Shown here piece by piece: positions 12,208-60,619 of a stretch of 64,000 nt of DNA (positions within the stretch are counted from its first letter, which is position 1; every line of letters begins with the position of its first letter). The stretch is from the IMG/VR virus record IMGVR_UViG_3300010149_000010; one strand, given 5' to 3'. This DNA comes from a virus. Under the pieces are notes generated by a model. It searched no databases and was not told the DNA's origin. It saw only the letters and a program-made list of their open reading frames with translations. Position numbers and translations under genes: made by a program.

Positions 12208-12217
12208 TAAAAATTTT

Positions 12218-12290: not shown

Positions 12291-12314
12291 TTTAAAAAAG
12301 GAGAAAATAAAGAA

Positions 12315-14561: not shown

Positions 14562-14586
14562 TAATTAGCAATCCTAAACAACAAGT

Positions 14587-14632: not shown

Positions 14633-14835
14633 TATAACCGTCTCCATAAAGTGTAAAACACTTTAAAAAACCTTAAAGATGTGACGAGACCTAGAATTGT
14701 ACGAACTAATATTCAAAAGCAAAACAATTAAATGCAATTCAATACAAGAATGGCATAAAGCAGTAATACAATTAGAAAAAAAGGGACAAATGTTCGACAA
14801 CTTTGTAAAAAAAGGGTCAACATATAAATTCTATT

Positions 14836-15342: not shown

Positions 15343-15343
15343 A

Positions 15344-16462: not shown

Positions 16463-16615
16463 AAAAGTATGAAAATATAAAAGCGTTTGAATTAGAACTA
16501 CTTCTAAACGCTGAAAAAATGAAAATTGAATTATTAAAAAGAATTGCCAACTCTTTAGAAACTATTGCTGCTAAAAAAGAAGTAGAAAAAGATAAAAATG
16601 ATTTTTTAAATTTTA

Positions 16616-17200: not shown

Positions 17201-17212
17201 AAAAATGCATCT

Positions 17213-43054: not shown

Positions 43055-43119
43055 AAAATAAAAATTTTTTTTTACAAAAGCATTCAACTGAACAATCAAG
43101 AAATAAGCATCAAAACAAT

Positions 43120-44193
43120 ATGGCAAATAAAAAAATTACAGGCATACCTGAAATTGACATGATAGCAGCTTCCATTGCAAAGAAATTTGGTAAAGAAAAT
43201 ATAATGAGCTTGGGTCCCAGGTATGAAAAAGTGAAGCCTATTTCTACCGGTTCCATAAGTCTTGACGCTACACTTGGGGTCGGCGGCTTACCTAGCGACA
43301 GGGTGGTAGAAATTTATGGTCCTCCTTCTGCAGGAAAAACTTCTTTATGTCTGCAGATAGCTCATCAGTATGTCTCAAAGTTTGGTTATGATAGACCTCC
43401 AGTTTACATAGATCTAGAGAGAACAACAGGGCTTGATCTTGTTACATCTATGGGTCTTGAGTCAGAAAAAATGATTTTCTGTTATCCTGACACTGCAGAA
43501 GAAGCGTTGCAGCTCTGCCAAGACCTTGGCAAAACAGGCAAAGTAGGTGTGATAATTTTTGATTCCATCGATGCTGCTCAAAGTGAAAGAGACACTAAGC
43601 GTCTAATGAACGAAACAGGTGTTGGCGATTTGCCAAGACTTCTTTCTAAAGCTTTACGAGCAATATCAAAGATAAGTGTTGATAATGACTGCTTGTATCT
43701 CTTTATTAATCAAGTTCGCATTAACATTGGCGTAATGTACGGAAATCCAGAAACAACTTCAGGTGGCAATGCTATTCCATTCTATTCCTCTGTTAGGCTC
43801 AGAGTAAGTAGTAAACCTTCTAAAGATCTTGATGGCGCTATTGCCATGAAGGTTAAGATCGTAAAAAACAAAGTGGCCCCTGCTTTAAATAAAGTAGCTG
43901 AATTCGACTTTGTTTGTGGTGTTGGCACAGACCCCCACCTTGATCTTATCGGATACGCTAAAGATATAGGTTTAGTTAGGTTTGCTGGTTCTGCAGTAAA
44001 GTGGGAAAATCCAGAGACCAAAGAGCAAGAAACTTTATGTACTGGCGGTAAAAATGGGCTAAAAGATCTTCTGATTGACAGTCCACTTCATTACGACCAT
44101 TTTAAAAAATTATGTTTGAATCAAGAATCAAATTACATGGAAAATTTAAACAATGTGCAACAACCAGAACCACAACCGCAAGAGCAACCATAG
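43120..44193 (+). CDS. recA: RecA recombinase
   Basis: ISTGSISLD..LG.GGLP, EIYGPPSAGKT, DSI, FINQVR..IGVMYGNPETTSGGNA..FYSSVRL, KNKVAP. Confidence 0.95.
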   Translation: MANKKITGIPEIDMIAASIAKKFGKENIMSLGPRYEKVKPISTGSISLDATLGVGGLPSDRVVEIYGPPSAGKTSLCLQIAHQYVSKFGYDRPPVYIDLERTTGLDLVTSMGLESEKMIFCYPDTAEEALQLCQDLGKTGKVGVIIFDSIDAAQSERDTKRLMNETGVGDLPRLLSKALRAISKISVDNDCLYLFINQVRINIGVMYGNPETTSGGNAIPFYSSVRLRVSSKPSKDLDGAIAMKVKIVKNKVAPALNKVAEFDFVCGVGTDPHLDLIGYAKDIGLVRFAGSAVKWENPETKEQETLCTGGKNGLKDLLIDSPLHYDHFKKLCLNQESNYMENLNNVQQPEPQPQEQP

Positions 44194-44221
44194 AGCTTCA
44201 GCTCCTGCAGTTAATCTTGAG

Positions 44222-45508
44222 ATGAAAGAAGCACCAGCAAACGAAAACCCATATGTACACTTGCACGTACATACAGAGTATTCTTTGCTAGATGGTATTA
44301 ATAAAATTAAAAGACTTCCTCACTTTGTTAAAAATATGAATCAACCTGCTGTTGCTATGACTGATCATGGCAACATTTCAGGATGTTACAAGTTTTTTAA
44401 AGAGTGTAACAAAGCAAACATAAAACCTATTATTGGTATGGAAGCTTATTATGCAGTTAATGACAGAACGTTAAAAGAACCAGATGAACTTGGAAAAAGT
44501 TATTATCATTTAATCCTTATTGCTGAAAACAATGTTGGGTTGCACAACTTGATGAAACTTTCTTCAGATTCATACACTAGCGGTTTCTATAGGAAACCTA
44601 GGATTGATGACGCTTTGCTAGCAGATCATTCTGAAGGAATTATTGCTACCACTACTTGTCTCGGAAGCAGAGCTAGTCAACTGATATTAAATAATGAAAT
44701 TACAGCTGCTGAAAAACTAATACACCATCACAAAGCCATCTTTAAAGATAAATTTATCATAGAGTTGCAACTTCATAGAGACCATGAGCAACAAGAAGTC
44801 AATAAGGTCTTGCAAAGGATTGCTCTAGACAACGACTTCCCAATGATCGTTACAAATGATTGTCATTACGCTTATGAGCATGACAAGATGCATCACGAAG
44901 CAGCTCTATGTATGCAGACAAAAACTACTTTATCCAATCCTAAAAGATTCACTTTTGGCGAAATTAACGTCCATATGGCGAGTCATGACTGGATGTGGAA
45001 CGAAGCAAAAAATCAAAATATGCCTTATGATGTTATTAGTAATACTAAAACTTTAGCAGACATGATAGATAGCGATTCCTATTTTATGGATCGCATGAAC
45101 CGTTACCCTAAATACAAAGACCTTCCAGAAGGTTTTACTGATATTGATTTTCTTGCTTTAGAAAGTCAACATGGGTTATTTGACCGTTTCAAAGAAATGC
45201 CTCCTGAGATTTACCAGCAAAGACTTACCTATGAGTTGAGTGTTATCAAAAAAATGGGTTTTGCAGATTACTTATTAATTGTTTCTCAATTCATGAAGGG
45301 TGCAAAAGAAAGAGGCGTTCTTCACGGACCTGGTCGCGGCTCTGCCGCAGGCTCTCTCATAGCTTATGCTTTGGGCATTACAGAAGTTGACCCTATTAAG
45401 TACGGTTTAATTTTTGAAAGATTTTTAAACGAAGGTCGCGGTGCCACACCGCTCATTTTTAACAAACACATGGCTGCTCTTGCAGACAATAGCGACAAAC
45501 CTTTTTGA
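44222..45508 (+). CDS. dnaE: DNA polymerase III alpha, fragment 1 (PHP domain and start of the palm; stops before the catalytic DxD)
   Basis: HLHVHTEYSLLDG, TDHGN, TNDCHY, GPGRGSAAGSL.AY.LGIT.VDP.KYGL.FERFLN, then a stop codon. Confidence 0.92.
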   Translation: MKEAPANENPYVHLHVHTEYSLLDGINKIKRLPHFVKNMNQPAVAMTDHGNISGCYKFFKECNKANIKPIIGMEAYYAVNDRTLKEPDELGKSYYHLILIAENNVGLHNLMKLSSDSYTSGFYRKPRIDDALLADHSEGIIATTTCLGSRASQLILNNEITAAEKLIHHHKAIFKDKFIIELQLHRDHEQQEVNKVLQRIALDNDFPMIVTNDCHYAYEHDKMHHEAALCMQTKTTLSNPKRFTFGEINVHMASHDWMWNEAKNQNMPYDVISNTKTLADMIDSDSYFMDRMNRYPKYKDLPEGFTDIDFLALESQHGLFDRFKEMPPEIYQQRLTYELSVIKKMGFADYLLIVSQFMKGAKERGVLHGPGRGSAAGSLIAYALGITEVDPIKYGLIFERFLNEGRGATPLIFNKHMAALADNSDKPF

Positions 45509-45520
45509 AAGAGATTCACA

Positions 45521-46842
45521 ATGAAAACACAATTCAATAAAGAAGAAAAATACATTCAAGAAATTGCGACTAAGATTCGCAATTCTGGCAATACTACAAT
45601 GATCAATCTTTATGCAGTAATGAACAAGAATACGGGCCTTGTAATCAATTACAAAAACATTTCTTTTTACACAACTAGAAAATCTGCAAGAAGAATTAGG
45701 CTTGAGCTTTTACAAAATGGCTCCCACCTTCCTAAAGATGTAAAAATTGTTCAAGCTCAATTCGTAAATGTTGATGCTTGGAAAACTGCAAAATGAAGGA
45801 GCACTTAGTGCCTAAGTTTTGGCACTCCAACTCTTCCGCTAATTCTACCTCTGGATCTTTTTCTACCGATGGCCGCTACCTTTATTCTGGCAAAAAGGTA
45901 ATAGGCCACACTGATACTCGTGGTCAAAAGATCTTGTACAATTACACAAAAAAAGGTGGCGCTTTTATTTCTGCCTTAGTTAGCAGACACGTCAATCTGT
46001 CAATATTTTACGCAGACACTCTTGTAAAGGTAACTGATGCTTAATGACCAGAGCGCAGAAGCGCAGAACTTTTTAGAAAAGCATGTTCATGCTAGAGCTA
46101 ATCTTTTAATTAAAGAGCTTTTAGAAAAGGGTCAAAGAGATTGGGACCTCACTTCTCAACAATGGTATGAAGACTTATTCTGTCAATATGAGGAAGATTT
46201 CGACATTTGGAAAGTAGACGAAGATTACGAAGGTACAAACTATTGCCCTCCCGAACCAGACCCCAAAGTAAGAGAACCTTTTGAATTTTGGATTGTTAGC
46301 GATTATTTTGCTAACAAACTCAAAGACAATGGCCACTTGGTTACAAACCACTGGGGCTTTTGGATTTGGGGTAGAGAAACTACTGGCCAATCCATATTAA
46401 TAGACTATGTTTTTCAAAAAATATGGGAAAGTTACAACAATCCTCAATGACCTCCCTCAATGAGTCCTTTATAAAGTCAAATATAAAATCTTGTATAACT
46501 TACATGGTTTATAGAATCTACACAAACGCTTGCAAGAGTAAAATTCCTGAAGATATTCTTTGGTTTTCTGAACTATATTTAAAACCTCGCACTCAAGAGT
46601 CTACGGCGCTTCCCTCTTATGAGAATTATTCTCCCTACACCGATTACCCTTCTTTGAGAAAGCCTCTTGCTTTTTATGTTGTTTCTGATTTTTTTGCCAA
46701 AAAATTAATTCTTCAAGATGCTTTAATTACTGATCATTTTGGTTTCTGGATTTGGGGTCGAGAAACAAACCCTCTAATACCTTTAAGGCAAGATAGCCTT
46801 ATCAATAAGATCGCATCAGAAGATTCTATTCTTTGCAAATGA
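45521..46842 (+). other. Four small ORFs; 46037 and 46423 are tandem paralogues
   Basis: Shared R.P..F..VSD.FA.KL......T.H.GFWIWGRET. Confidence 0.6.
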
Positions 46843-46922
46843 ACTTGTAATGAAAATATAAATTTTGCAATTTAAGACTTTTGCTACCAACCCTTCTTTT
46901 ATATTTATACATAAGACAAAAA

Positions 46923-49457
46923 ATGACCCATTTATTTAATGCAGAAAAAGACGTTGAAGTTTTTTTTCGCAACATTTTACAAAAACAAACAGCAGCTAAC
47001 TTTATTACTGCAAAAGGTAAGGGTTGGCAAACCGACGGTATTATTGAATGGCAAGGTCCAAATAATACTATCTCACTTTTACTAGAAGCTAAATTTAATA
47101 AAGATTTAACAGATGTAAAAAACCGTTCTATTGTTTTAGCTCAAGTGTTGTATTATTACAATCGACTTAAAGAAGAAGGCAAATCTTTGCCCAACTTTAT
47201 TCTCGTTGGTGACGATGCTTACTCTTTTGTGATACCTTTCAATTCTATCGAGTTCTATTTAGATTCTGAAGTTGATTGGTCAAGACCTCCTAGTAACCCA
47301 GATCCTGAGCTTAAAATCGAGTTAGATGTTTTTCTTTACAAAACTTCTGAACTTACAGGATTAGAACTAAAACTACATTGCGAAAATCTTTCTCAAGACA
47401 CAGTTACAAAAACTAAACCCTCAAAAGAAAATCTTTCTCAAATGTATCAATACTGGGTTGACCATATCTTCCCTAAAGATAAATACTCTTCTGTTGAAAG
47501 GGCGCACATCTTTTATAATTGTATCTGTTATTCTGAAACAGACGACAATTGTGCTTACTTGCACCCAACTAAAAAAAACATATTAGTAATAGACTCTAAA
47601 GAATATCAAATATCTCTATCGGCAACAAATGGTTTTTTTGATAAAGTTCAAAGAGGTTTGCCTGCTATTGAAATTGACGAACTTGTTTCAATGAGAGACA
47701 GGATTATTGAAGACGACACCCGTCGTCGTCAAGGCGTCTTTTATACACCGACTTTATGGGTAGATGAAGCTAACTCTCAAATAGATGAAGTACTTGGCGA
47801 AACATGGCGTGACGATTGTATCGTTTGGGACTGTTGCGCAGGCACTGGCAATTTAACCCGCGACTATCAATTTGCAAACCTTATTCTTTCTACAGCAGAG
47901 CTAACGGACATTCAAGTTATCAAAAGAGAAGATTATAATGAAGGAGCACAAATCTTTCAGTACGACTTTCTAAATCCTGAATCACACAGTCCATTCTTTG
48001 ACGGAACTGACAATGTGCTTCCACTTTCAGTGAAGAAACTCTTAAAAGAGGGTGCAAAAAATGGAAAAAGGTTGGTATTTCTGATCAACCCTCCCTATGC
48101 AGAAGACGGTATTGCAGGAGCAAAAGGTGAAACCCGAAAAGGTGTAGCATCAAAAACCCTTGTCAATAACACCATGCCCAAATTAGGTAGGGCGAATCGA
48201 CAACTATACACTCAGTTTCTTTACCAGTGTGAGCAACTAGCTTCACATTATGGGTTCAAGAAAAAAACCATAGGAGTATTTTGCAATCCCAATTTTATAA
48301 CTTCAGCTTCTTTCTTTAAATTTCGAACTTTTTGGTACGATCGTTATTCTTATTATTCAGGCTTTATGTTTCAAGCCTCTCATTTTGCAGATGTCAGTGA
48401 TAGGTGGGGTATAACCTTTACTATCTGGAATGAGGGTGTTACTGAAGCTAACCAAGACCTTCCCTTCACTCTGAAAGATACGATAGAAGAAAGCGTTATT
48501 TCTCTTGGAGAAAAAAACTTATACTCGGCAAAGGGCAGAGAGGCCTCTGTTTGGGTGTCTGCTCTTTCTTCGAAGCCATCAGTTATTGATACACCTAAAT
48601 TTTCTAGCGGACTAAAAACAAAAGAAGTGCTAGGGAATGATAAAGGTATGATTCTTAATAGTCTAGGGATCATGTGTAACAAAGGAAATAACTTTGTAGA
48701 TTCCACTACAGGCGTAGCTCTATTAAGTGGGAAACCTACAGATAAAGGCAGATGCAATTTTGATCTTACAATAGGCGAAACTTGGCGTAGAACTATCGCA
48801 CTTTTTTCAACACGAAAACTCGTAAAGAGTAGTTGGACAAACCAAAAAGACGAATATCTAGCACCTCAGGTTGAAAAAGAAGGCTACGAGCAGTGGGTAG
48901 ACGACTGCCACGTTTATGCTTTACTTCATACTTCTAACAACATGACCTCCATGAGAGATGTTGAGTATAAAGGTAAAGCTCATAACATCCACAACCATTT
49001 CTTTTGGTTGACTCGTAAAGAAGCTCTTGATCTTTATGGAACTAATCGTGAAACAAGAAGCCTTTATAGAGACGCAAAAAGAAACTCAATACCTTTTGTC
49101 CTTCAAACGAAAGACGGAGTAGACATCACGCCTCAATGGCGTAAAAATGGCGACCCCTATTTTTCTTCTATACTTCCTGATTTAAATCTCTCACCTTTGG
49201 CTTTAGAAATACTTCAAAACCTTAACGATCTTTTTTTAGAAAGCCTACCTTTAAGAAAACAAACCACCCACGTAAATGAAAAAGGCACTTCCATAAAGCT
49301 TCATCTAGAAGCTTGGGACGCAGGCGTTTATCAGCATAAAAAACTCTGGTACACAAGCCCTGCTCTAAAGGCCAAATGGGAACTGATACGTCTCAAGCAT
49401 TCACGTTTAGCAAACCAGCTCCAACCTGGCGTATATAAATATGGGTTCTTAAAATAA
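46923..49457 (+). CDS. Fused restriction-modification-like enzyme (N-terminal PD-(D/E)xK nuclease plus amino-methyltransferase; Type IIG/IIL-like)
   Basis: TDGII...LLEAK nuclease motif; G.FYTP, WDCCAGTGNL (motif I), YDFL, INPPY (motif IV). Confidence 0.75.
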   Translation: MTHLFNAEKDVEVFFRNILQKQTAANFITAKGKGWQTDGIIEWQGPNNTISLLLEAKFNKDLTDVKNRSIVLAQVLYYYNRLKEEGKSLPNFILVGDDAYSFVIPFNSIEFYLDSEVDWSRPPSNPDPELKIELDVFLYKTSELTGLELKLHCENLSQDTVTKTKPSKENLSQMYQYWVDHIFPKDKYSSVERAHIFYNCICYSETDDNCAYLHPTKKNILVIDSKEYQISLSATNGFFDKVQRGLPAIEIDELVSMRDRIIEDDTRRRQGVFYTPTLWVDEANSQIDEVLGETWRDDCIVWDCCAGTGNLTRDYQFANLILSTAELTDIQVIKREDYNEGAQIFQYDFLNPESHSPFFDGTDNVLPLSVKKLLKEGAKNGKRLVFLINPPYAEDGIAGAKGETRKGVASKTLVNNTMPKLGRANRQLYTQFLYQCEQLASHYGFKKKTIGVFCNPNFITSASFFKFRTFWYDRYSYYSGFMFQASHFADVSDRWGITFTIWNEGVTEANQDLPFTLKDTIEESVISLGEKNLYSAKGREASVWVSALSSKPSVIDTPKFSSGLKTKEVLGNDKGMILNSLGIMCNKGNNFVDSTTGVALLSGKPTDKGRCNFDLTIGETWRRTIALFSTRKLVKSSWTNQKDEYLAPQVEKEGYEQWVDDCHVYALLHTSNNMTSMRDVEYKGKAHNIHNHFFWLTRKEALDLYGTNRETRSLYRDAKRNSIPFVLQTKDGVDITPQWRKNGDPYFSSILPDLNLSPLALEILQNLNDLFLESLPLRKQTTHVNEKGTSIKLHLEAWDAGVYQHKKLWYTSPALKAKWELIRLKHSRLANQLQPGVYKYGFLK

Positions 49458-49528
49458 CCCTAACAACCATTTTTACATCTACGTACAGTAGGTAACATCC
49501 ACCTTCTAAACATTAGGGCTCCTTACAT

Positions 49529-51136
49529 ATGGATCAAAAAAGAAAAAAAATATTACAAAGCATAGACTCTTTTATAATAGACACAAGATATAATCAAGTC
49601 GATCCAGATTATTTAGAATTTGAAATTAAAATGTCTTCTATTGAAGATTTGGAAAGAATGAACAGCTGTTTAATTAACGGTGCTTATTCTAAAAACGAAA
49701 CCTTCTTCAACCATAATCCTCATAATAGTATCTTACTTTATGTTACCGGCTTAACGTCTGAATTTGACTTTAAAAAAGCTCGATCAGACACTATCGGAGG
49801 CAGCCCCCCAGATATCGACATAGACCATGATGCTTTAGACCGTGAGACTGCAATTGACTGGTGTATTGACTATTGGGGTCAAGATAATGTTGCTAATATT
49901 ATTACTCATGGAACATTTAAACCTAAATCTTTAGCGAGAAGTTTCTATAGAATTACTGACGGTGATACGAATCACCTTTCAGAACTCTTAGATTATATTC
50001 CTCCACCTAAATTTGGAAAAGAATCAACTCTTGAAGAAATTCTAGATCAACATCCAGAACTAGAAGAAACTGAAAAGTTTTCTGAGTTTTTACATTTTGC
50101 AGACAGAATAGAGGGCATGGTGTCCAACTTTGGTATTCACGCCGCAGGATTGATTATATCCGACAACCCAATAAAAAACACTGTACCCCTTTGGAAAAAT
50201 AAGAAATCTGAAAGAATAACTCAGTTTGACAAAGACGAATGTGAAGAACTTGGGCTTATTAAGTTCGATTTCTTAGGCATTGACACTCTCTCTATTGTTA
50301 AAGAATGTACTAAACTTATTTATGACAATCACGAAATTCAATTAAACCCATACGCAATTCCTGATTTTGATACAGAAACTTATTTAACTTTAGAAAAAGG
50401 TTTGCTTACTGGGGTTTTTCAAATGGAAACTTCAGGTATGGCCAAGGAATTGATTATAAAAATCAAACCTAAATCTATAGAAGATTTATCTGCTATTTCT
50501 GCTTTAAATCGACCAGGACCGCTTCAAGCTGGCCTTGACAAACAGTACATTTTGAACAAATACAACAATTTTGCTCCTGAAGATCTTCCTGATCCCGTTG
50601 CAGAAATACTTAAAAACTCTTACTGGACTCTTGTTTACCAAGAGCAAGTGATGGAAATTTGTTCCAAAATCGCAGGTTTTACTCCTAAAGAATCTGATGA
50701 TATTAGACGTGCAATGGGCAAAAAAAAGGTTGAGGTTTTGAATGTTTATAAAACTCAATTTATAAGTGGTTGCATCAATACTGGCGGTTTGTCCGAAACG
50801 TACAGTAATGAACTTTGGGATAACCTTGTTGGGTTTGCTGATTACTGTCTAGCAGCGACTACTAAAATCAATACTTCTCAAGGAGTTTTGACAATTAAAG
50901 ACATCGTTGATAACAAAATGCAAGTCGAAATCACTTCGTACAACAAAGTTACTGATACAAAATATTCACAGCAAGTAACCCAATGGCACGAAAGAGGCAT
51001 TCAAGATGTGTTTAAATATACTCTTAAAGATGGCTCTGAAATCAAAGCTACTGAAGATCATAAATTTTTAACAAATGATAACGAAATGCTTGAAATCGAG
51101 ACCATCTATAAACGAAACTTACAATTAAAAAAGTAA
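49529..51136 (+). CDS. dnaE: DNA polymerase III alpha, fragment 2 (catalytic palm/fingers) fused to a split-intein N-half
   Basis: PDIDID, GIHAAG, GLIKFDFLG, GVFQME, ALNRPGP, YQEQVM, RRAMGKK, FADY, then intein CLAATT... Confidence 0.93.
   Translation: MDQKRKKILQSIDSFIIDTRYNQVDPDYLEFEIKMSSIEDLERMNSCLINGAYSKNETFFNHNPHNSILLYVTGLTSEFDFKKARSDTIGGSPPDIDIDHDALDRETAIDWCIDYWGQDNVANIITHGTFKPKSLARSFYRITDGDTNHLSELLDYIPPPKFGKESTLEEILDQHPELEETEKFSEFLHFADRIEGMVSNFGIHAAGLIISDNPIKNTVPLWKNKKSERITQFDKDECEELGLIKFDFLGIDTLSIVKECTKLIYDNHEIQLNPYAIPDFDTETYLTLEKGLLTGVFQMETSGMAKELIIKIKPKSIEDLSAISALNRPGPLQAGLDKQYILNKYNNFAPEDLPDPVAEILKNSYWTLVYQEQVMEICSKIAGFTPKESDDIRRAMGKKKVEVLNVYKTQFISGCINTGGLSETYSNELWDNLVGFADYCLAATTKINTSQGVLTIKDIVDNKMQVEITSYNKVTDTKYSQQVTQWHERGIQDVFKYTLKDGSEIKATEDHKFLTNDNEMLEIETIYKRNLQLKK
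50846..51136 (+). other. Split intein N-fragment (96 aa)
   Basis: CL...T.I.T..G...I..IV...QWHERG.Q.VF.Y.L.DGS.I.AT.DHKF.T...ML.I..I..R.L.L, closely matching cyanobacterial DnaE-N inteins. Confidence 0.92.
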
Positions 51137-51147
51137 AAGGATTCTTT

Positions 51148-51967
51148 ATGACTACGCATTCTACAAATTCCTCTCACTCTACCTTTATAAAAGACAGCAA
51201 TGTATCTATAGATGTCCTCAATGTTAACAAAACAAGCACTCATGAAGAAATCATACGATCTCTACCTTCATACCATGATATAGATTCAACGTTATTCCAA
51301 GATGGAAATACCATAGCTTTGACGCCTCCAGTCGATCCAGCTCATGCACAAAACTCCATGTTTTTTGTAGATGGTGTTTCTTTGTCCAGGGTAGAGTCTG
51401 AACAATCTGTTCAGCAAGGTTATTATTTAACCCCAGATGGGTTGCATTTAACGTTAACTGCTTTTGAAGACTTAGTCTCAAAACAGATTCATGCATTGTA
51501 TACTCATCAGTCATAATGTTATATTAAATTCAAAACAATAACTTCAATTTTGCAACTTGCAGGAGGTAATTATGACTGTTGTGTACCCCGGCTTAGTAAA
51601 TATAGACGGCTCTACAATTACTGTCAATACGGTAAACGTTTATGACGATAACCAAAGAACTTATACTTACGACCTAACTGATCAGATTCCTCAATGGCAA
51701 TCTTTTTCTGAGCTCTCTCTAGAGGATGAAATCTTAGCTCAAGATTTTTTAAAAACTATCAATCTGCCTTCTTCAGCAAGAATCAACACTCTTATAATAA
51801 TTCTAGACGGTTTGACACTGTCGCCCCAGCTTTCACCTGGCTCTCCTGGTGATTATAAAGTTATCAATTCAACTACACTTGAGTTGTTGTGGCCTGACAA
51901 TCAACTGCCTCGAATGCACAGTGAGACTGATACTCCAGTCTTACTCGCTCGTTATACTCTGGCTTAA
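51148..51967 (+). other. Two small putative structural-accessory proteins (51148..51516; 51557..51967)
   Basis: Both carry a '..DG..L....G..Y' pattern and precede the fibre genes. Confidence 0.45.
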
Positions 51968-51978
51968 GGATTTAAAAA

Positions 51979-54900
51979 ATGGCTACAAGAAGAACAGATA
52001 ATCGAAAAGGGTCTCTAGATCCATCAGTAGTTAATAATATAAAAGAAAAAGTACTGTTAGAAGTTCAACAAGGTATTATTGGACCAGCTGGACCTCAGGG
52101 TCCTCAGGGGCCTCAGGGTAGTGATGGTGCCGCAGGAAGTCCCGGAGAAAGCGTTAACTTTTCTACTACTTCTACATCTATGCATTCCAATGATTCAAAT
52201 GGCACTTTAACCGTTACTAGTGGGTTGTCATATGTTGGCGGAGAATATATTTCAATTGCCCCATCAACAGATTTAACCAAGGTGCAAATAGCAACCGTCA
52301 CTAGTTATTCGACGGATCAACTATCATTTTCTCATGTATCTAACAATGCTAGCGAATTATATTACGATTCTTGGGTAATTAATTTAAGCTCAGCTCCAGG
52401 CGTTCAAGGTCTTACTGGGATTCAAGGTCTTCAAGGGGATGTTGGAGCCACTGGCCCTCAAGGTCCCATCGGTTTGACTGGCCCTCAAGGGCCAACAGGC
52501 TTAACTGGAGCTCAAGGTCCCGCCGGAGTTGATGGACCTCAAGGCCCCCAAGGAAATCCTGGGCAAACAGGAGCCCAAGGTGTTCAAGGGAACCCTGGAG
52601 CGACTGGCCCTCAAGGTCCTGCCGGAGCAGACGGCGCTGACGGAATCCAAGGGTTAAAAGGGGATACCGGTGATGCCGGTTCGCAAGGTGTAGCTGGTAG
52701 CTCTGCATACCAAACCTGGATTCTTGCTGGAAATACTGGCAACGAACAAGATTTTTTAGATAGTTTAATAGGCGCAACTGGAAGCGCTGGTGTTCAAGGC
52801 CCTGCAGGTCCAGAGGGAGTTGCAGGTACTGATGGAGTTGATGGGAGCCAAGGAATACAGGGGCCTCAAGGGATCCAAGGCCCACAAGGGGTTGCCGGTT
52901 TAGGTATTAACCTCAAGGGCAATGAAAGTACTTTCAGTAGTTTAACCCAATATGAAAGTAGCGCAGCATCTGGAGACGCTTACACTATTACTGATGAGAA
53001 CTACACCTTATATGTATGGAACTCTTCCACTAGTACTTGGGTAGATGGTGGTTCTATCCAAGGCCCTGCGGGCCCTGCAGGCGTTGCAGGACCTAGTGGG
53101 GCAGATGGGGCAGATGGATCGACCGGCCCAAAAGGAGACGATGGTGATCAAGGGTTGCAGGGTCTTGCAGGAGTAAATGGTCAAAATGGTTCTGATGGCT
53201 CTTCAGCTTATCAAATATGGATCTCTAATGGAAATTCTGGTACTGAAGCCCAATTCTTAGAATCACTTATTGGTCAAGACGGTCAGGATGGTCAAGATGG
53301 CGCTCTTGGTGCAACCGGTCCGCAAGGAGTTTCTGGAGATACGGGCCCACAAGGAATTCAAGGCCCACAGGGGCTACAGGGAACAGAAGGTCCCGCCGGA
53401 CCTCAAGGTGCTCAAGGAGACGCTGGCCCTACAGGGGCGGCTGGTTCAAACGGTTCAGACGGTGTTGCGGGCCCTACCGGACCTCAAGGTGCTGCCGGCG
53501 CTGCCGGTGCGGCTGGACCTCAAGGTGATGTCGGTCAACAAGGCCCTACAGGGCTAACCGGGCCGCAAGGCGAAACTGGACCACAAGGTGAACAAGGAAT
53601 TCAAGGTCAACAAGGAGCAGCTGGCTCGGTTGGTTCTCAAGGACCCGCAGGCACAGGGATTACCTTTAAAGGTTCCGTAGCTGATGTAAATGCGCTAAGC
53701 ATTATTTCATCTCCCACTCAAGGAGATGCTTATCTTGTTGAATCTAATGATTCCCTCCACATACATGATGGGAGCGTTTTTGTCTCTGGAGGATCCATAC
53801 AAGGCCCTCAAGGCGTAAAAGGCGATACTGGCGATCAAGGAATTCAAGGAATTCAAGGCGTTGCTGGACAAACAGGCTCTCAAGGCGCAGCTGGACCTGC
53901 TGGTTCTGACGGCATTGATGGTTCTGACGGAATTCAAGGCGCCCAAGGCATTAAGGGCGACACTGGAGACCAAGGTTCAACCGGCCCTCAGGGTGCAGCA
54001 GGAAGTACTGGTCCTCAAGGAGAGCAAGGTCCAATTGGCCAAACTGGTCAACAAGGCATTCAAGGTGTTCAAGGTGAAACAGGGGATCAAGGTCTTCAAG
54101 GTCCAGCTGGACCTCAAGGCGAAACTGGTTCGCAAGGAATACAAGGAGCAACTGGCCCACAGGGTGTTGCCGGCCCTACCGGACCTAAAGGCGACACTGG
54201 AGACACTGGTATCCAGGGCCCAACTGGAGCTGCTGGAGCAGATGCAGTTAACAGCGTTATTGCTAGTTCATTAAGCACAAACGCTAGTTTCATCTCTTCT
54301 GTTTCTTCAGATTCAACTTTAGCAACTAATGTTGCTTCTGAATTAGGCACCTCCTCTGCAATTACTGGATTGCAAACCCAAATTACAGCAAATGATGGAG
54401 ACATCACTAGCAACTTAGCGGCAATTCAGAGTAATGATACTGACATCGCAGGTCTTGGTACCAGGATGACAGCGGCTGAAGGTGATATAGATGACCTAGA
54501 GTCTGATGTGGCTACTAATACATCGAGTATCAGTACCAACGCCAGTTCAATCAGCACTAATGCTAGTAACATCTCGACCAATACGAGCAACATCAGTGCG
54601 AATGACTCTGATATAGCCTCTAACTTGGCCGCCATCCAAAGTAATGATACTGACATTGCAGGTCTTACGACTCGTATAAGTTCTGCTGAAAGCAACATCA
54701 GTTCAAACGATACGGATATATCAAATCTCGGTACCAGGATGACTGCTGCTGAGAGCGACATTGATGATCTTGAAACAGATGTAGCCTCCAATACTAGCAG
54801 TATCGGATCTCACACAACGAGCATTAACAGCCTTACCTCTACTCAGTCTTCTCACGCTTCAACGCTCACGAGTCTACAGAGTCAGATTACAGGTAATGAT

Positions 54901-55392
54901 GGTGACATCAGCACGAATACTTCTGGTATATCCTCCAATGCGAGCAACATCAGTTCGAATGATACTGATATCACAGCTCTTCAAGCATTATCCCACACGC
55001 ATGAAACCGCAATTGGACTTAATAGTAATGGCACTTACACTGTTATAGCTGATGCTAACTATGCTGATGGAACCAATTTAAAAACTGCAGTCACTCAACT
55101 TGATACACAAGCCAAAAACAATGCTGACAACATTGACCTCCTAGAAGTAAGAGACGGTGGACTATTTGAGCAGCAAGATCATGGTTCTAGTGTTTATTCT
55201 GTCATCATGCCTTCAACCATAAAAATTAGCTCACATCTCGGTCCGTTCGAAATTGACATGGCCGATATTATAACCAATAGTGGCGCAGGTGACATCATTT
55301 TTTACGGCTGCAAAGCCAAGACACACGAAGACGCCCATTTCGAAGTAGATACCACTAATGGTGATTCAATCTTTACAGGATATCGAAACTAA
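51979..55392 (+). CDS. Collagen triple-helix fibre protein with a C-terminal trimeric coiled coil (tail fibre/spike)
   Basis: Long Gly-X-Y runs; duplicated SSAYQ.W...GN.G.E..FL.SL and KG...GDAY...GGSIQGP modules; NDTDI/NTSSI heptads. Confidence 0.85.
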   Translation: MATRRTDNRKGSLDPSVVNNIKEKVLLEVQQGIIGPAGPQGPQGPQGSDGAAGSPGESVNFSTTSTSMHSNDSNGTLTVTSGLSYVGGEYISIAPSTDLTKVQIATVTSYSTDQLSFSHVSNNASELYYDSWVINLSSAPGVQGLTGIQGLQGDVGATGPQGPIGLTGPQGPTGLTGAQGPAGVDGPQGPQGNPGQTGAQGVQGNPGATGPQGPAGADGADGIQGLKGDTGDAGSQGVAGSSAYQTWILAGNTGNEQDFLDSLIGATGSAGVQGPAGPEGVAGTDGVDGSQGIQGPQGIQGPQGVAGLGINLKGNESTFSSLTQYESSAASGDAYTITDENYTLYVWNSSTSTWVDGGSIQGPAGPAGVAGPSGADGADGSTGPKGDDGDQGLQGLAGVNGQNGSDGSSAYQIWISNGNSGTEAQFLESLIGQDGQDGQDGALGATGPQGVSGDTGPQGIQGPQGLQGTEGPAGPQGAQGDAGPTGAAGSNGSDGVAGPTGPQGAAGAAGAAGPQGDVGQQGPTGLTGPQGETGPQGEQGIQGQQGAAGSVGSQGPAGTGITFKGSVADVNALSIISSPTQGDAYLVESNDSLHIHDGSVFVSGGSIQGPQGVKGDTGDQGIQGIQGVAGQTGSQGAAGPAGSDGIDGSDGIQGAQGIKGDTGDQGSTGPQGAAGSTGPQGEQGPIGQTGQQGIQGVQGETGDQGLQGPAGPQGETGSQGIQGATGPQGVAGPTGPKGDTGDTGIQGPTGAAGADAVNSVIASSLSTNASFISSVSSDSTLATNVASELGTSSAITGLQTQITANDGDITSNLAAIQSNDTDIAGLGTRMTAAEGDIDDLESDVATNTSSISTNASSISTNASNISTNTSNISANDSDIASNLAAIQSNDTDIAGLTTRISSAESNISSNDTDISNLGTRMTAAESDIDDLETDVASNTSSIGSHTTSINSLTSTQSSHASTLTSLQSQITGNDGDISTNTSGISSNASNISSNDTDITALQALSHTHETAIGLNSNGTYTVIADANYADGTNLKTAVTQLDTQAKNNADNIDLLEVRDGGLFEQQDHGSSVYSVIMPSTIKISSHLGPFEIDMADIITNSGAGDIIFYGCKAKTHEDAHFEVDTTNGDSIFTGYRN

Positions 55393-55417
55393 AAAATTTT
55401 ACACAGGAGATTAAATT

Positions 55418-58400
55418 ATGGCTTCTAGCTTAAGACAAAAAGACGCCCCTACTGGGGGGGACTTCTCAGCAGGCGGACAAGATACCTTAGGTACCTCAAT
55501 AGTACCATGGAAAGACGTCCAAACCGTCAATATGACTGCTAAAGGCAATGTTGTAATTGAAGGCAACTTGACCGTTACTGGAAATGCTACAGAAGTTACC
55601 GTAGACAAGCTTAGCGTTGAGGAACCGATGGTTAAGCTTGCTAAAATTAATACTGGTGCTGGTACCTCCAGTGCAGATATTGGCTTATATGGTGTAGAAG
55701 ACACTGACGGTACGCCTAAGTACCACGGTCTTGTTCGTGACGCTGATGATGCAACCTGGAAGCTTTTTGAAGGCAATCAAGACGCACCCGGAGACACTAC
55801 TGTCGATTTTAATGGAAGTGGCAGCGTTGACGGCACCTTGCAAGCTAAACTAAACCTTCCAGCTGCTGGCGACCTTAAGATCGCTGGAGTTGTAGTAGGT
55901 GCAGATGCAGCCGAGTTGAATGTACTCGATGGCGTTACTGCTGGTACTGCTTCCGCTAGTAAAGCAGTTGTGCTTGATACTAATAAAGATATAACAGGCA
56001 TCAGCACTATTACTGCTGGCACCTTGCTTGCTGGTAACGTTACTATCGCTGGCAATGATATTACCGTAAGTGGTGGCGCTCCCTCCTTCTCTTCTGTTGA
56101 TATCAATGGCGGCACTATTGATGGTACTACTATTGCAACATCAAATATCACTGTTGGTGTTGGTAAAACTTTGGACGTTTCTGCAGGTACCTTTTCTACT
56201 TCGGCAGCACAAAAACTTGCTATCCTGCAAGGCGCTGCCTCAGATGTAGATGTCGGTGCATTTGATTTAAGAGCTAAAACTCTAACTGCAGATGATTTAA
56301 CAGCTACACAAGTAGTATTTGCAGGTACTGATGGTGTGCTTTCAGATAGTGCAGATCTCACTTTTGTAGCCGACACTTTAACAGCCACCAAGATTGGTGC
56401 TTTTGAAGCAGCTGGTGCTATCGATTTTGCTAGCCAAGCAATGACCAATGTAGATATAAATAGTGGTGCAATCGATGGTGTCTCTATTGCAACTTCTGAT
56501 ATCACTATTGGCGCAGGCAAAACTCTAGATGTTTCTGCTGGTACGATTACTTTTGCTGCAGGTCAAATTGCTAATGTTTCACTTGTTAATGATAGCGTAA
56601 GTTTTGGTGGCGTATCTTTAGACCTTGGTCAATCTGACGTAACTCCTGCATTTGATCTAACAGATGCTACAAACTACCCTACTTCGAGCCTTGTTGGTAC
56701 TATTACCAACGATCAACTAGCTGGTTCCATTGAAGATTCAAAACTTAATACAATTACTGCTGGAGATAAAGTTTCTGGTTCGGCTGTTCAATTAGCAACA
56801 GCTTCAGCACTTGAAGATTCTACCGGACTTCGATTAAAGTCAGCTGTAGCTGGTGATGGTCTAGATCTTTCTGCTGGACAGATACTGTCAGTCAATGTTG
56901 ATGACTCTTCTATTGAAACTAATTCTGATACTTTGAGAGTAAAAGCTGAAGGCGTTACAAATGCAATGCTTGCTGGCAGCATTGCGAATGCTAAGTTGTT
57001 AAATTCAGCAGTAACAATTACTGCTGGAAGTGGGTTACAAACTGGTGGCTCTGTATCTTTAGGAAGCTCTGTTACTGTTAATGCTAAAGTCGACGATAGC
57101 TCAATAGAAGTTGATTCTACTTCTAACGAGTTGCAAGTTAAAGCCGCTGGTATTACAAATGCAATGTTAGCAGGTTCCATTGAAAACGTTAAGCTAGCTA
57201 ACAGCACTATTTCTTTCGGTGGTGTTCAACTCGCTTTGGGTGCTTCTGACGCTACACCTGCTTTTGATCTTGCCGATGCTACTAACTTGCCTACTACCTC
57301 ATTAACAGGCACAGTTACAAATGCGCAACTAGCTGGCAGCATTGCCAATGCAAAACTTGCGAATAGTACTATTTCTGGAATTTCTTTAGGAGCCGATCTA
57401 AGCAGTCTCGCTGTTGATAACAGCAGTATTAAGCTTAGTTCTGGTACTACATATAATGGTAGCACTGGTCTTACCATTTCTGTAAAAGATGCTGGCATCA
57501 CAAATGCTATGCTTGCTGGGAGTATTGAAAACGCAAAGCTCTCTAACAGTACTATAAGTTTTGGTGGTGTCTCATTGGCGCTTGGTGCTTCTGATGCCAC
57601 CCCAGCATTTGATCTTGCAGATGCAACCAATTACCCTACCGCAAGCCTTGTTGGAACTATCACTAATGCACAGCTTGCAGGCAGCATCGAAAACGCAAAG
57701 CTTTCTAACAGCACACTAAATCTAGCAGCTGATTCTGGCAGCTCTGATGCTGTCAATTTAGGCGAATCAATCACCTTTACTGGTGGAGATAGTATAAGTA
57801 CTGTTGTTTCAAACAATACTATTACCATTAATGCCGATGATGCTTCTGGCTCAATTAAAGGTGTAGCGTCTTTTCATTCTGACGATTTTTCTGTTTCAAA
57901 CGGCATGGTTCAAATAAAATCAGAGGCCATAACTAACTCCCAGCTTGAAGGGTCTATTGCTGACAGTAAACTAAGTCAAATCTTTACCGCAGGTAAAGTT
58001 GCCCTTAGTGCTCTTGAAATCGATGGCGAATCTAATAATTGTGCCGTTTTAATGGATGACGACCTGTTCATTGTAGACGATGGAGCCGATGGAACTAACA
58101 GTAAGCTGGCAGCCTCAGTATTGAAGATATACTCACGAGGAGCCATCTCAGCCACTGATGCAGGTGGAGATGGAAGCTTTGCTTATAACGCCTCTACTGG
58201 TGCATTTACTTACACTGGTCCAAGTGCATCTGAAGTAAGAGCTCATGTTTCTGGCGGTACTGGTGTTACTATTACTGATGGTAGTATTGCTATCGGTCAA
58301 GCTGTAGGTACAACTGATAGTGTTACTTTTGGTCAACTTACTCTCGGAACCAACGCTGTAATTACTGAAGCAGATGCAGAAAAAATTGACGATATTACTA

Positions 58401-59002
58401 ATGGTACTGCTGCCGCAAACAAAGCTCTTGTTCTCGATGGTAGCAGTGATATTGCAAGTATTAACAGCTTAACAGCGTCTACTCTTACAGATGGTACTGC
58501 TACTTTAACTGGTGGCCAACTCACTGGATTGTTAAATCTTCGCGTTGACAACTTGCAATTAAATGGCAACGATCTTAAATCTACCTCTGGAGATTTAAAT
58601 TTAAATTCTGCAAGTGGCGACGTCAAGATAGCAGCTGGAGATAATCTTGTATTAGCGTCTGCCGGTAATATTACTGCTGATGGCGATGTTTTAATTAACG
58701 GCCTTTTAGAAACTGACGGAATTAGAAGAAAAATAGATATAAAAGCAGACAACTATCAAGTTACTGGTGATGATCATATTGTTTTCTTCAACGTTTCTTC
58801 TGATAAAACTTGCACCCTTCCTGCTTCAGATGATTCTGATATGGTTTCTAAAGAATACGTGATTAAAAATGTTGGTTCCAATACTATAACTTTTGCTTCT
58901 GATAGTCAGGTTGACGGAGCTACCGCTAGTAGCACAACGCTTACTGCAGGGCAAAAAATAAAAGTCGTAGGCACGTCATCTTTTGGTTGGCAATCAATTT
59001 AA
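55418..59002 (+). CDS. Large repetitive beta-rich virion fibre/adhesin-like protein
   Basis: Repeats TNA.LAGSI.NAKL.NS and ISFGGV.L.LG.SD.TPAFDL.DATN.PT; rich in G/A/S/T/D. Confidence 0.7.
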   Translation: MASSLRQKDAPTGGDFSAGGQDTLGTSIVPWKDVQTVNMTAKGNVVIEGNLTVTGNATEVTVDKLSVEEPMVKLAKINTGAGTSSADIGLYGVEDTDGTPKYHGLVRDADDATWKLFEGNQDAPGDTTVDFNGSGSVDGTLQAKLNLPAAGDLKIAGVVVGADAAELNVLDGVTAGTASASKAVVLDTNKDITGISTITAGTLLAGNVTIAGNDITVSGGAPSFSSVDINGGTIDGTTIATSNITVGVGKTLDVSAGTFSTSAAQKLAILQGAASDVDVGAFDLRAKTLTADDLTATQVVFAGTDGVLSDSADLTFVADTLTATKIGAFEAAGAIDFASQAMTNVDINSGAIDGVSIATSDITIGAGKTLDVSAGTITFAAGQIANVSLVNDSVSFGGVSLDLGQSDVTPAFDLTDATNYPTSSLVGTITNDQLAGSIEDSKLNTITAGDKVSGSAVQLATASALEDSTGLRLKSAVAGDGLDLSAGQILSVNVDDSSIETNSDTLRVKAEGVTNAMLAGSIANAKLLNSAVTITAGSGLQTGGSVSLGSSVTVNAKVDDSSIEVDSTSNELQVKAAGITNAMLAGSIENVKLANSTISFGGVQLALGASDATPAFDLADATNLPTTSLTGTVTNAQLAGSIANAKLANSTISGISLGADLSSLAVDNSSIKLSSGTTYNGSTGLTISVKDAGITNAMLAGSIENAKLSNSTISFGGVSLALGASDATPAFDLADATNYPTASLVGTITNAQLAGSIENAKLSNSTLNLAADSGSSDAVNLGESITFTGGDSISTVVSNNTITINADDASGSIKGVASFHSDDFSVSNGMVQIKSEAITNSQLEGSIADSKLSQIFTAGKVALSALEIDGESNNCAVLMDDDLFIVDDGADGTNSKLAASVLKIYSRGAISATDAGGDGSFAYNASTGAFTYTGPSASEVRAHVSGGTGVTITDGSIAIGQAVGTTDSVTFGQLTLGTNAVITEADAEKIDDITNGTAAANKALVLDGSSDIASINSLTASTLTDGTATLTGGQLTGLLNLRVDNLQLNGNDLKSTSGDLNLNSASGDVKIAAGDNLVLASAGNITADGDVLINGLLETDGIRRKIDIKADNYQVTGDDHIVFFNVSSDKTCTLPASDDSDMVSKEYVIKNVGSNTITFASDSQVDGATASSTTLTAGQKIKVVGTSSFGWQSI

Positions 59003-59047
59003 TCAAAACCAATATACAGTAACAAATAAAGTAATCTCTTGTTTTTG

Positions 59048-59083
59048 AGGGGTGGTTCGCATTAGCGGGCTACCCCTTTTTTT
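59048..59083 (+). terminator. Rho-independent terminator after the fibre genes
   Basis: AGGGGTGGTTCGC-ATTA-GCGGGCTACCCCT followed by a T-run. Confidence 0.75.
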
Positions 59084-59132
59084 ATATATAAAAAATTCAC
59101 TACAATAAATAACAAAACCTCAAGGAATTTAA

Positions 59133-59369
59133 ATGCGTATAGTCGCAACCTATGAAACCCCAAAATTCTGTAATTTTTTCAATTCTTCAAATATTGAAAC
59201 CAATCAAAACAGATTTAATTTTGACGGATTTGAAAGCTCAACCATTTATGCTTCAGACCTGATAGATTTAAAACAACAAGTCGAATCAATAAGTCTTCAA
59301 AAAACCTCTCAACGAGGGTTTACCAGACCCTTGAAGCTTAGCGACCTTACAATTAGGATAAGTGATTGA
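59133..59369 (+). CDS. Hypothetical protein, paralogue of 42492..42737
   Basis: M.I.A.Y..PK...DGFE...IYA...RP..LSDLTI.I in both. Confidence 0.6.
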   Translation: MRIVATYETPKFCNFFNSSNIETNQNRFNFDGFESSTIYASDLIDLKQQVESISLQKTSQRGFTRPLKLSDLTIRISD

Positions 59370-59372
59370 TCT

Positions 59373-59486
59373 ATGAAGATAATTTCAAAAGAATATATCG
59401 GAAAACAAGAAGTATACGATATTGGTGTAACCTCTCTAGAAGGAAATCATAACTTTGTTTTAGAAAATGGCGCAATCGCTTCTAAT
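59373..59486 (+). other. Split intein C-fragment (38 aa), Cys+1 at 59487
   Basis: VYDIGV...HNF.L.NG.IASN|CFN, as in cyanobacterial DnaE-C inteins. Confidence 0.92.
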
Positions 59487-60617
59487 TGTTTTAACAAAGC
59501 ACATAGTGTTAGCTACTCCATACTTACCTATGTAAGCGCATACATGAAAACACATTATCCTGTAGAATTTTTCACAGCATTAATGTCTACACGAAGCAAA
59601 ACTTTGCAACCTAAAAGCTGGGCTCTTAAAGCCCCAGAATACATTGAAGAAGCTAAAAAATTTAATGTGACTGTAAATCCACCTTATGTAAATCAGTCTG
59701 GATTTGAATTCACCATTGCAGACAAAGAAATTTATTTTGGTTTAAATGCAATAAGAGATGTTGGTCGCACAGCAGCAAGAATGATTATTAAAGCTAGACA
59801 AAAAACACCTTTTAAATCTGTAAAAGATTTTGTTAGCCGCGTCAATTTGCAAAAAGTAAATACAAAAACTTTCGAAGCTCTCGTCAAAGCAGGGGCTTTC
59901 GACAAGCTTGGTTACGATAGAGCAGATCTCCTTGAAAAATGTCCTCAAATATACTCTTATGTTAAGAGTATGGAGGATTATAAACAAAGAGAACTAGACG
60001 TAATCGAAAGAAATGCTTACAATGCTAGGATCATTCCGCTCATAGAAAGACGAAATTTCCTTAGAAAAGAATTAAAAAAAATTCAAAATCGAATTGATAA
60101 AGATAAGATCAAAGAAGGCGACATGGATAATTTTCATATTCTTTCTTCAGAGCTTGAACCTCTCGAAGACCAAGAGTTGAAAAAAAAAGTTACTTTAAAA
60201 TCTAAAGAAAAAACTGACTTTCCAGAATTATTAAAAGATAATTTTGTAGAGCTTGGAATGAAAGAAATCTTAGATCAAGCAAATTACATAGGGTGCTATA
60301 TTGGAGGCCACCCTATGGATTTAATTAAAATTAATAGCGATAAAATTTCATTTCTAAACGAATCGCAATATGCTAACGTTGCTGGCGTCATACTTTCCAT
60401 AAAGAACATAGTCACTAGGAAGGGTAAGAATATGGCCTTCATTGAAATCAATGACAAAACTGCTACTGCAGAAATTGTTATTTTTCCTCAAATGTGGTCT
60501 AAAATTTCTAAACTCAATCTTAAAGAGACTGACATTGTTTGCTGCAAGGTCAAAGTAGAACGTACAGAACCTGATATAAAATTAATTTTAAATTCAATTG
60601 TGCTATACGAGGTGTAG
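59373..60617 (+). CDS. dnaE: DNA polymerase III alpha, fragment 3: split-intein C-half plus C-terminal HhH/OB domains
   Basis: MKIISKEYIGKQEVYDIGV....NHNFVLENGAIASN|CFNKAHS..Y, YMKTHYPVEF, GL.AI..VG, L.KAGAFD, GKNMAF. Confidence 0.93.
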   Translation: MKIISKEYIGKQEVYDIGVTSLEGNHNFVLENGAIASNCFNKAHSVSYSILTYVSAYMKTHYPVEFFTALMSTRSKTLQPKSWALKAPEYIEEAKKFNVTVNPPYVNQSGFEFTIADKEIYFGLNAIRDVGRTAARMIIKARQKTPFKSVKDFVSRVNLQKVNTKTFEALVKAGAFDKLGYDRADLLEKCPQIYSYVKSMEDYKQRELDVIERNAYNARIIPLIERRNFLRKELKKIQNRIDKDKIKEGDMDNFHILSSELEPLEDQELKKKVTLKSKEKTDFPELLKDNFVELGMKEILDQANYIGCYIGGHPMDLIKINSDKISFLNESQYANVAGVILSIKNIVTRKGKNMAFIEINDKTATAEIVIFPQMWSKISKLNLKETDIVCCKVKVERTEPDIKLILNSIVLYEV

Positions 60618-60619
60618 AT

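Follow-up and report, generated by a model that had tools for sequence, protein, structure and literature searches.

The locus described here raises the question of whether a split intein of the cyanobacterial DnaE type is a working element of a phage replication gene and, if so, how phages and cyanobacteria came to share it. The locus lies in a 64,000-nucleotide (nt) stretch of the IMG/VR virus record IMGVR_UViG_3300010149_000010, the whole of which is called the window in the following, and the interrupted gene is dnaE, which encodes the alpha subunit of DNA polymerase III (Pol III). The initial annotation described a naturally split DnaE intein whose halves stand 8.2 kilobases (kb) apart, and the translations read as it had quoted them. 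An open reading frame (ORF) of 535 amino acids (aa) at 49529-51136 (+) ends in ...LVGFADY/CLAATTKINTS...KATEDHKFLTNDNEMLEIETIYKRNLQLKK and a stop codon (a slash marks the splice junction here and below), and another of 414 aa at 59373-60617 (+) starts with MKIISKEYIGKQEVYDIGVTSLEGNHNFVLENGAIASN/CFNKAHS. Cys1 of the N-terminal intein half (IntN) falls at nt 50846 and the IntN stop codon at 51134-51136, the ATG of the C-terminal half (IntC) is at 59373, and the distance from this stop codon to this ATG is 8,236 nt on the same strand. The split lies between blocks B and F, and the two halves, of 96 and 38 aa, are separately translated.

The similarity of both halves to DnaE inteins is far beyond chance. 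Compared by phmmer with proteins in the PDB, IntN matches the solved Npu, Ssp and consensus DnaE inteins end-to-end with E values of 1.2e-21 to 1e-16, and IntC matches Npu IntC with E values of 3e-10 to 4e-8. The model TIGR01445 (intein_Nterm) gives 52 bits on IntN, with a curated cut-off of 24.5, and TIGR01443 (intein_Cterm) gives 30 bits on IntC, with a curated cut-off of 15.6. The best-covering NCBIfam models are those built on the cyanobacterial DnaE-N and DnaE-C halves, both of which score below their equivalog cut-offs; it is the intein parts that are matched by the cyanobacterial split-half models NF007079 and NF005616. The insertion point is a Tyr/Cys position in the fingers of Pol III alpha, where the window reads GFADY/C...SN/CFNKAHS and cyanobacteria read KFAEY/C...SN/CFNKSHS, and the residues of class-1 splicing are all present (C1, TEDH, VYDIGV, HNF, ASN/C). 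These matches and the junction alignment bear out the assignment to the same family, insertion site and split position as the Ssp and Npu DnaE inteins. The position is known as Pol III alpha insertion point a (site a); Novikova et al. (2016, PMC4760082) describe it as the usual site in cyanobacteria and every intein known from it as split. The window shares with the cyanobacterial DnaE inteins (Ssp PCC6803, Npu; PMC4760082) the interrupted protein, the insertion point Y/CFNK.HS, the split position, the sizes of the halves (about 96-102 and 35-38 aa), the catalytic residues and the unusual Ser-Asn C-terminus. It differs from them in its phage carrier, in exteins that are unrelated beyond general DnaE similarity, in an additional break of dnaE that is free of any intein, in halves placed 8.2 kb apart on one strand around a fibre-like cassette, and in the reversed net charges and the 3-residue IntC insertion of its subclade; the phage copies are, moreover, far more diverse. 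The element is a genuine member of the known DnaE site-a split intein family, found in a new kind of carrier and in an unusual locus.

The title of the initial annotation named only the intein break, but dnaE is broken once more upstream of it, giving three pieces in all (Table 1). These tile the NCBIfam DnaE model NF004226 as positions 3-402 (of 1146), 400-748 and 745 onward, the last piece reaching position 917. Piece 1 carries the Pfam PHP domain (E 3e-47) and DNA_pol3_alpha profile positions 4-102. Piece 2 begins with about 91 family-specific residues and continues through palm (PDIDIDHD), thumb and fingers to ...GFADY; it matches the Pfam DNA_pol3_alpha profile at positions 99-260 together with the finger domain (E 2e-44), and its ORF also holds the Pfam intein splicing domain beside the Pol III alpha NTPase and finger domains. 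Piece 3 carries Pfam HHH_6 (E 1e-28) and an OB fold. We consider it highly probable that a family of large uncultured marine phages carries here a functional, canonical class-1 split intein of the PolIII-alpha insertion point a type. According to this reading, piece 2 (N-extein with IntN) and piece 3 (IntC with C-extein) would be made from separate transcription units, the two intein halves would dock and fold into one HINT domain, and trans-splicing by Cys1, the block B Thr/His, the block F Asp/His, the terminal Asn and Cys+1 would yield an 815-residue polypeptide reading ...GFADY-CFNKAHS..., as in the contiguous gene of a relative described below. The spliced product would then pair with piece 1 (PHP and palm start), which must presumably join the remainder of DnaE non-covalently, to form the only Pol III alpha of the phage. 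The intein would have been inherited vertically within the phage family, with one clean loss. Its common ancestry with the cyanobacterial intein would be owed to horizontal movement between the dnaE genes of phages and cyanobacteria.

The phage context given in the initial annotation is confirmed by the relatives of the window. The working set of homologues is that of an exhaustive HMMER search; a word-indexed search on the IntN region alone returned one relative. Twelve related IMG/VR viral contigs (L001-L012) have a piece 2 that is 55-73% identical to that of the window. Two of the twelve, 161.8 and 158.5 kb long, are complete, each with exactly one DnaE, which is split; no second intein was detected in the relatives' genomes, and no close GenBank phage was found for the window. 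The three-piece dnaE is present in every relative long enough to show both breaks. An IntN homologue (P0015) is also located on a more distant phage, L203 (IMGVR_UViG_3300035137_000026), a complete genome of 197.7 kb with terminal repeats and a GC content of 46%, compared with about 36% for the family of the window.

Conservation within this family is what would be expected from an element in use, and the split intein is probably active in splicing. Eight related viral contigs retain the full set of splicing residues. Cys1 and the T..H of block B are kept in all nine relatives that carry the IntN half, and the Ser-Asn/Cys end is kept in every recovered IntC half, though intein identity drops to 30%. 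The ratio of non-synonymous to synonymous substitution rates (dN/dS) is 0.03-0.05 for IntC, 0.29-0.45 for IntN and 0.01-0.08 for the exteins (0.034, 0.42 and 0.014, respectively, in the unsaturated pair L004/L010), from which it follows that IntN is fast-evolving yet constrained and IntC tightly constrained. The first break of the same dnaE works without any intein, and one could imagine that at the second break the intein halves merely dock the two polymerase pieces, with no ligation. This we find hardly credible, since the catalytic residues (Cys1, block B Thr and His, block F Asp and His, terminal Asn, Cys+1) are all there and conserved throughout the family, purifying selection on IntC is strong and both intein-end models score above their curated cut-offs. 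The signature of a dead intein, i.e. ends without catalytic residues, is not seen at the break between pieces 2 and 3. In one relative, L009, pieces 2 and 3 form a single 808-aa ORF without intein, reading GFADYCFNKSHS (GFADY-CFNKSHS) with the Cys at +1 retained, and this junction is exactly the one predicted for the spliced product. In the extein tree L009 falls within a supported clade (95/93) with the intein-bearing L006, L007 and L011, and it is best read as a clean loss of intein and cassette, most simply via recombination with an intein-free allele.

Cross-splicing with a DnaE half of the host, if it has one, was also put forward as a possibility, and the C-half was noted for a short insertion, TSLEGN. 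In the alignment this adds 3 residues that cyanobacterial and other phage IntC do not have, and it is present only in the window, L001 and L002. Net charges in the same subclade are 0 for IntN and -2 for IntC of the window, and +3 for IntN and -4 or -5 for IntC of L001 and L002, compared with -6 to -13 for cyanobacterial IntN and -1 to +4, mostly +1 to +2, for cyanobacterial IntC. The pattern of an acidic IntN and a basic IntC seen in known members, which is not a formal criterion, is thus absent from the subclade of the window. An electrostatic capture step between acidic IntN and basic IntC is part of the assembly model of Npu, and a charge swap in two strands alone did not abolish cross-activity (bioRxiv 10.1101/546465). 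Because the charge pattern is opposite, cross-splicing of the window's halves with a cyanobacterial or host DnaE half seems unlikely. The genes psbA and nblA were looked for in the complete relatives and in L203 and were not found; such absence is weak evidence, and it leaves nothing that marks these phages as cyanophages. The proposal of cross-splicing with a host is, on both counts, doubtful. It is a reasonable prediction from the charges that window-type halves are naturally orthogonal to Npu, and the intein of the window is plausibly a new, possibly orthogonal, protein-ligation tool.

How phages and cyanobacteria came to share the element is best approached through distances. The intein of the window is 43-50% identical to cyanobacterial ones over about 130 columns, compared with 31-34% for the exteins, and the exteins of the window are no nearer to cyanobacteria than to other bacteria (29-34%; up to 37% for Acidobacteria, Nitrospirota and others). 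Between the window and its own distant relatives, the intein is 40-48% and the exteins are 55-64% identical. Phage inteins are 30-63% identical among themselves, compared with 62-83% among cyanobacteria, and within the phage family the non-synonymous rate of IntN is about 2 to 37 times that of the exteins. Since the intein evolves much faster than the exteins in phages, co-divergence would predict a far lower intein identity between phages and cyanobacteria than is found. The intein of L203 shares 50-64% identity with cyanobacterial inteins, approaching the 62-83% that these show among themselves, and clusters with them (93/91), and its exteins are 32-34% identical to cyanobacterial DnaE and stand beside the family of the window in the tree (93/85); forcing the L203 extein together with the cyanobacteria is weakly rejected by the approximately unbiased (AU) test (p 0.041). 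In addition, the metagenomic fragments P0014 and P0012 combine non-cyanobacterial exteins with a cyanobacteria-like IntN. L203, these two fragments and the distance gap together point to at least one movement of the intein between phage and cyanobacterial dnaE, in either direction. What moved may have been an intein already split, or else a contiguous homing intein that was divided on two occasions, each time at the canonical point.

Separate phylogenies of intein and extein, as the initial annotation had suggested, contribute less. In the tree of IntN and IntC, the 19 cyanobacterial inteins come out as a single tight clade (96/89), which joins the tree among phage branches that are long and deep. 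The extein trees set the phage family apart as a long-branched clade, weakly grouped with other viral DnaEs, and place the cyanobacteria with Melainabacteria among bacteria. The trees do place the L203 intein with cyanobacteria and its extein beside phages, but topological discordance was dropped as evidence of transfer in view of the AU tests (p 0.34 for the exteins, 0.46 for the L203 intein). Because these tests admit other topologies, the case for transfer rests on distances and rates; the exchange originally proposed is upheld to that extent, with tree topology adding nothing firm and no direction emerging. The same extein test bears on the idea that a phage took both halves of a split cyanobacterial dnaE, or the reverse, so that intein and exteins would have one history: a tree of the phage family with cyanobacteria and Melainabacteria is not rejected, and FA[DE]Y/CFNK with its Cys is common to both groups, with FAGY-GFNK in the other bacteria inspected. 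We nevertheless regard such a capture of the whole gene as very improbable. The exteins share 29-37% identity with Acidobacteria, Nitrospirota and others, and cyanobacteria, at 31-34%, are no nearer. In unconstrained trees the family stands beside other viral DnaEs and apart from the bacterial cluster. Cyanobacterial DnaE-N has neither the additional break of the phage gene nor its extra residues, about 91 in number, and the intein is more similar than the exteins despite its far faster evolution within the phage family.

The distribution of site-a alleles is relevant to a further account of the shared intein. The HMMER search with IntN gave 40 representatives at E<=1e-10 with two junction types, ..KFAEY/CL.., which includes named Okeania, Phormidium, Laspinema and Stigonema proteins, and ..GFADY/CL.., which has the exteins of the window's family. 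A scan of ~185,000 species genomes by IntC/extein alignment found no phage-type copy in cellular genomes; the best cellular matches were cyanobacterial DnaE-C genes at 38-45% identity. Matches in Planctomycetota and Patescibacteria were rejected as the same allele, being contiguous inteins at a neighboring site (...HN/SHS). Three loci from metagenome-assembled genomes (MAGs) of these groups (L115, L116 and L135) each have, near position 4001, a large contiguous intein with an endonuclease-sized insert, placed a few residues downstream from site a and ending in ...IVHN/SHSTAYAL with Ser as +1, a distinct insertion point. DnaE without an intein and with Cys at site a occurs in Melainabacteria and in one Leptolyngbyales cyanobacterium MAG (L148). 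The latter encodes a contiguous 1164-aa DnaE at 891-4382 (+) reading FEQMVQFAEY-CFNKSHS, and its extein nests among split-intein cyanobacteria, beside L094, which suggests that clean loss of the split intein also occurs in cyanobacteria, where the break has been called irreversible. In L168, which belongs to the genome of L094, and in L183, which belongs to that of L103, no more than about 1 kb separates the two halves.

The alleles that have Cys at +1 and no intein, in Melainabacteria, in one cyanobacterium and in L009, indicate that site a is receptive. It could be, then, that a contiguous endonuclease-bearing intein homed to the same DnaE site in both lineages and was split independently in each; the phage intein would still splice. 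The break falls between blocks B and F, the canonical point at which almost every split intein, natural or engineered, is divided (PMC2677866), and the exteins, at about 33% identity, are too different for easy homologous exchange of a whole split cassette. We consider such a parallel origin unlikely, though it deserves to be kept in mind: no contiguous intein was found at the exact site, the planctomycete and Patescibacteria cis inteins sitting downstream of it at .../SHS; published surveys hold all known site-a inteins to be split (PMC4760082); and the split ends of phage and cyanobacterial inteins align within 1-2 residues (IntN ...IF.R.L.L; IntC M(V)KI.S).

Several points weigh against a working split intein that moved between phages and cyanobacteria. 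The extein tree that joins the family of the window with cyanobacteria and Melainabacteria is not rejected (AU p 0.34), the intein tree allows L203 to be sister to the cyanobacteria or inside them (AU p 0.46), and intein identities of 30-45% may be near the floor set by the conserved motifs. Without an Npu-like charge pattern, assembly of the window's halves may be different or slower. What has been observed directly comprises the anatomy, the homology, the conservation and the difference between intein and extein distances; splicing, the timing of expression, assembly with piece 1 and the history of transfer are deduced from the sequence.

The arrangement of the locus also sets it apart from split inteins described earlier. 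The phage-like DnaE split inteins described by Dassa et al. (2009, PMC2677866) all occupy other insertion points, and their gaps hold endonuclease genes. Like these "fractured genes" (three DnaE loci, gp41-1, NrdJ-1 and IMPDH-1; PMC2677866), the window has a split intein in a phage-type replication gene with both halves on the same strand. The fractured DnaE loci, however, have other insertion points and inteins only about 40% similar to cyanobacterial ones, and the fractured loci carry a free-standing GIY-YIG or Vsr-like endonuclease gene in the gap, where the window has structural-looking genes instead. The absence of a homing endonuclease between the halves, as stated in the initial annotation, holds as far as domain searches tell: searches with Pfam (including E<=1), PHROGs and NCBIfam gave no HNH, GIY-YIG, LAGLIDADG or Vsr-like domain for any of the ORFs in the gap, and a very divergent nuclease may escape searches of this kind. 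The closest parallel is L203, which likewise has a three-piece dnaE downstream of recA, a site-a split intein and a gap of structural-looking ORFs (order: recA, piece 1, piece 2, a 3.5 kb gap with two such ORFs, piece 3). It differs from the family of the window in its exteins, only 30-33% identical, in an intein far closer to the cyanobacterial one, in extra cis inteins, one in piece 2 and a probable one in piece 3, and in a LAGLIDADG-like ORF at the first break. The latter (GIFDGDGCVF) is at 9684-10103 (+) in L203, between pieces 1 and 2; the full-length LAGLIDADG intein inside piece 2 (...STYGVM/CLPAG...VSHN/CFQEQ) is within 10001-18431, and piece 3 probably holds one more cis intein.

Table 1. 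The dnaE pieces, the intein halves and the features between them in the window
Feature	Coordinates	Strand	Description
dnaE piece 1	44153..45508	+	451 aa; PHP domain and first part of palm; ends in FERFLNEGRGATPLIFNKHMAALADNSDKPF and the stop codon
Insert between pieces 1 and 2	45521..49457	+	four small ORFs (91, 88, 137, 139 aa) and an 858-aa ORF
dnaE piece 2, N-extein	49529..50845	+	439 aa; Pfam and NCBIfam
IntN	50846..51136	+	96 aa and stop codon; Cys1, block B TEDH
Cassette between halves	51148..59002	+	four ORFs: 122, 136, 1137, 1194 aa
122-aa ORF	51148-51516	+	
136-aa ORF	51557-51967	+	
1137-aa ORF	51979-55392	+	collagen repeats, fibre-like; Collagen Pfam E 4e-74
1194-aa ORF	55418-59002	+	
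Intrinsic-terminator-like hairpin	59047..59088	+	stem 59047-59078 (14 pairs, 8 G-C), then T run
78-aa ORF	59133..59369	+	stop codon 3 nt before the IntC ATG; conserved copy in L002
IntC	59373..59486	+	38 aa; VYDIGV, HNF, terminal ASN; AGGA upstream of the ATG
dnaE piece 3, C-extein	59487..60617	+	376 aa; begins with Cys+1 (CFNKAHS); end of fingers, HhH, OB fold

The gap between the halves is most likely a rapidly turning-over fibre or receptor-binding-like cassette. The 1137-aa protein matches PHROG tail and tail-fibre families, these matches being driven by its collagen repeats, and the nearest ESM Atlas cluster of the 1194-aa protein carries an Mtd_N receptor-binding-protein domain (score 0.92), which is a lead only. 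The hairpin that closes the cassette is the best terminator-like site within 43000-61000; a scan for sigma-70 promoters gave sites no more numerous than in shuffled sequence. In the family of the window the gap is smallest in L006 (2.8 kb) and largest in L005 (11.5 kb), and its genes, like those in the gap of L203, are always different. Among the window and L001-L011, gap content is nearly wholly different, with one widely common protein family and most ORFs singletons, and the flanking exteins are 55-84% identical among relatives. From this difference between gap and flanks it follows that the split intein brackets a hot spot of gene turnover. The recurring family comprises the 1194-aa ORF and shorter paralogues (start MA.IK.KQI), with up to four copies in L004 and L010. 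That the conserved flanks promote cassette exchange is speculation. One may go further and picture large phages as a reservoir, perhaps the source, of the site-a intein, which cyanobacteria received or repeatedly traded, with the flanks serving as recombination arms for swaps of the fibre cassette; this seems to us rather improbable.

At the first break, between pieces 1 and 2, intein similarity was searched for and none was found, and piece 1 bears no intein motif; its terminus, FERFLNEGRGATPLIF..., is a 22-residue tail without a nucleophile. The tail motif GRGATPLIF is conserved across all relatives. This gap measures 4 kb in the window, compared with 0.3-1 kb in relatives. The 858-aa ORF (46881-49457, +) is absent from the matching position in relatives and has no Pfam, PHROG or NCBIfam match; by eye it shows an N6-adenine methyltransferase-like NPPY motif (LINPPYAEDG), CCAGTGNL and an N-terminal D...EAK, and it may represent a divergent gene, restriction-modification-like or of nuclease-methylase type, by which the first break was enlarged. 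The first ~91 residues of piece 2 (49529-49801, +; QVD.DFL.FE ... NPHNSILLY.TGLT.EFDF) resemble the last ~85 of piece 1 (45260-45508, +; ...RL.YEL..I.KMGF ... GSAAGSLIAYALGITEVDP...). A hidden intein or duplication at this break was rejected after hhalign comparison of piece 1 tails with piece 2 heads, which gave a match in the expected register (PHNSILLYVTGLT and AAGSLIAYALGIT). Because that match spans merely 15 columns at a probability of 1.3%, a degenerate duplication in the break region is a hint, suggestive at most. In another relative, L008 (1190-1406, +), ~254 nt interrupt dnaE piece 2 after ...DDVRRAMG, and the frame resumes with DNKLKKKHDVLNAYKEQF; the interruption matches the group I intron model RF00028 (60.6 bits, gathering score 50, E 7e-15). 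In a single phage family, dnaE is therefore home to an intron, to an intein and to a break that has no intein.

Protein trans-splicing relies above all on the Npu/Ssp DnaE split intein, and the origin of the site-a intein has been attributed to a single, irreversible break in cyanobacteria alone. In the literature searched, with subscription journals mostly outside reach, we found no published site-a intein in a virus, and the site-a inteins reported there are all cyanobacterial (PMC4760082; PMC2677866). That a wide and far more divergent range of large phages has the same intein, at the same site and split in the same place, is new. The site-a element is not confined to cyanobacteria, and its natural variants in phages form a panel for ligation tools, including a reversed-charge subclade that is perhaps orthogonal to Npu. 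Exchange between phage and host is a testable route for the spread of the element, for which L203 is the natural starting point. For the phages themselves, the locus represents an unusual genome layout, in which an essential replication gene is wrapped around a hypervariable cassette of structural genes.

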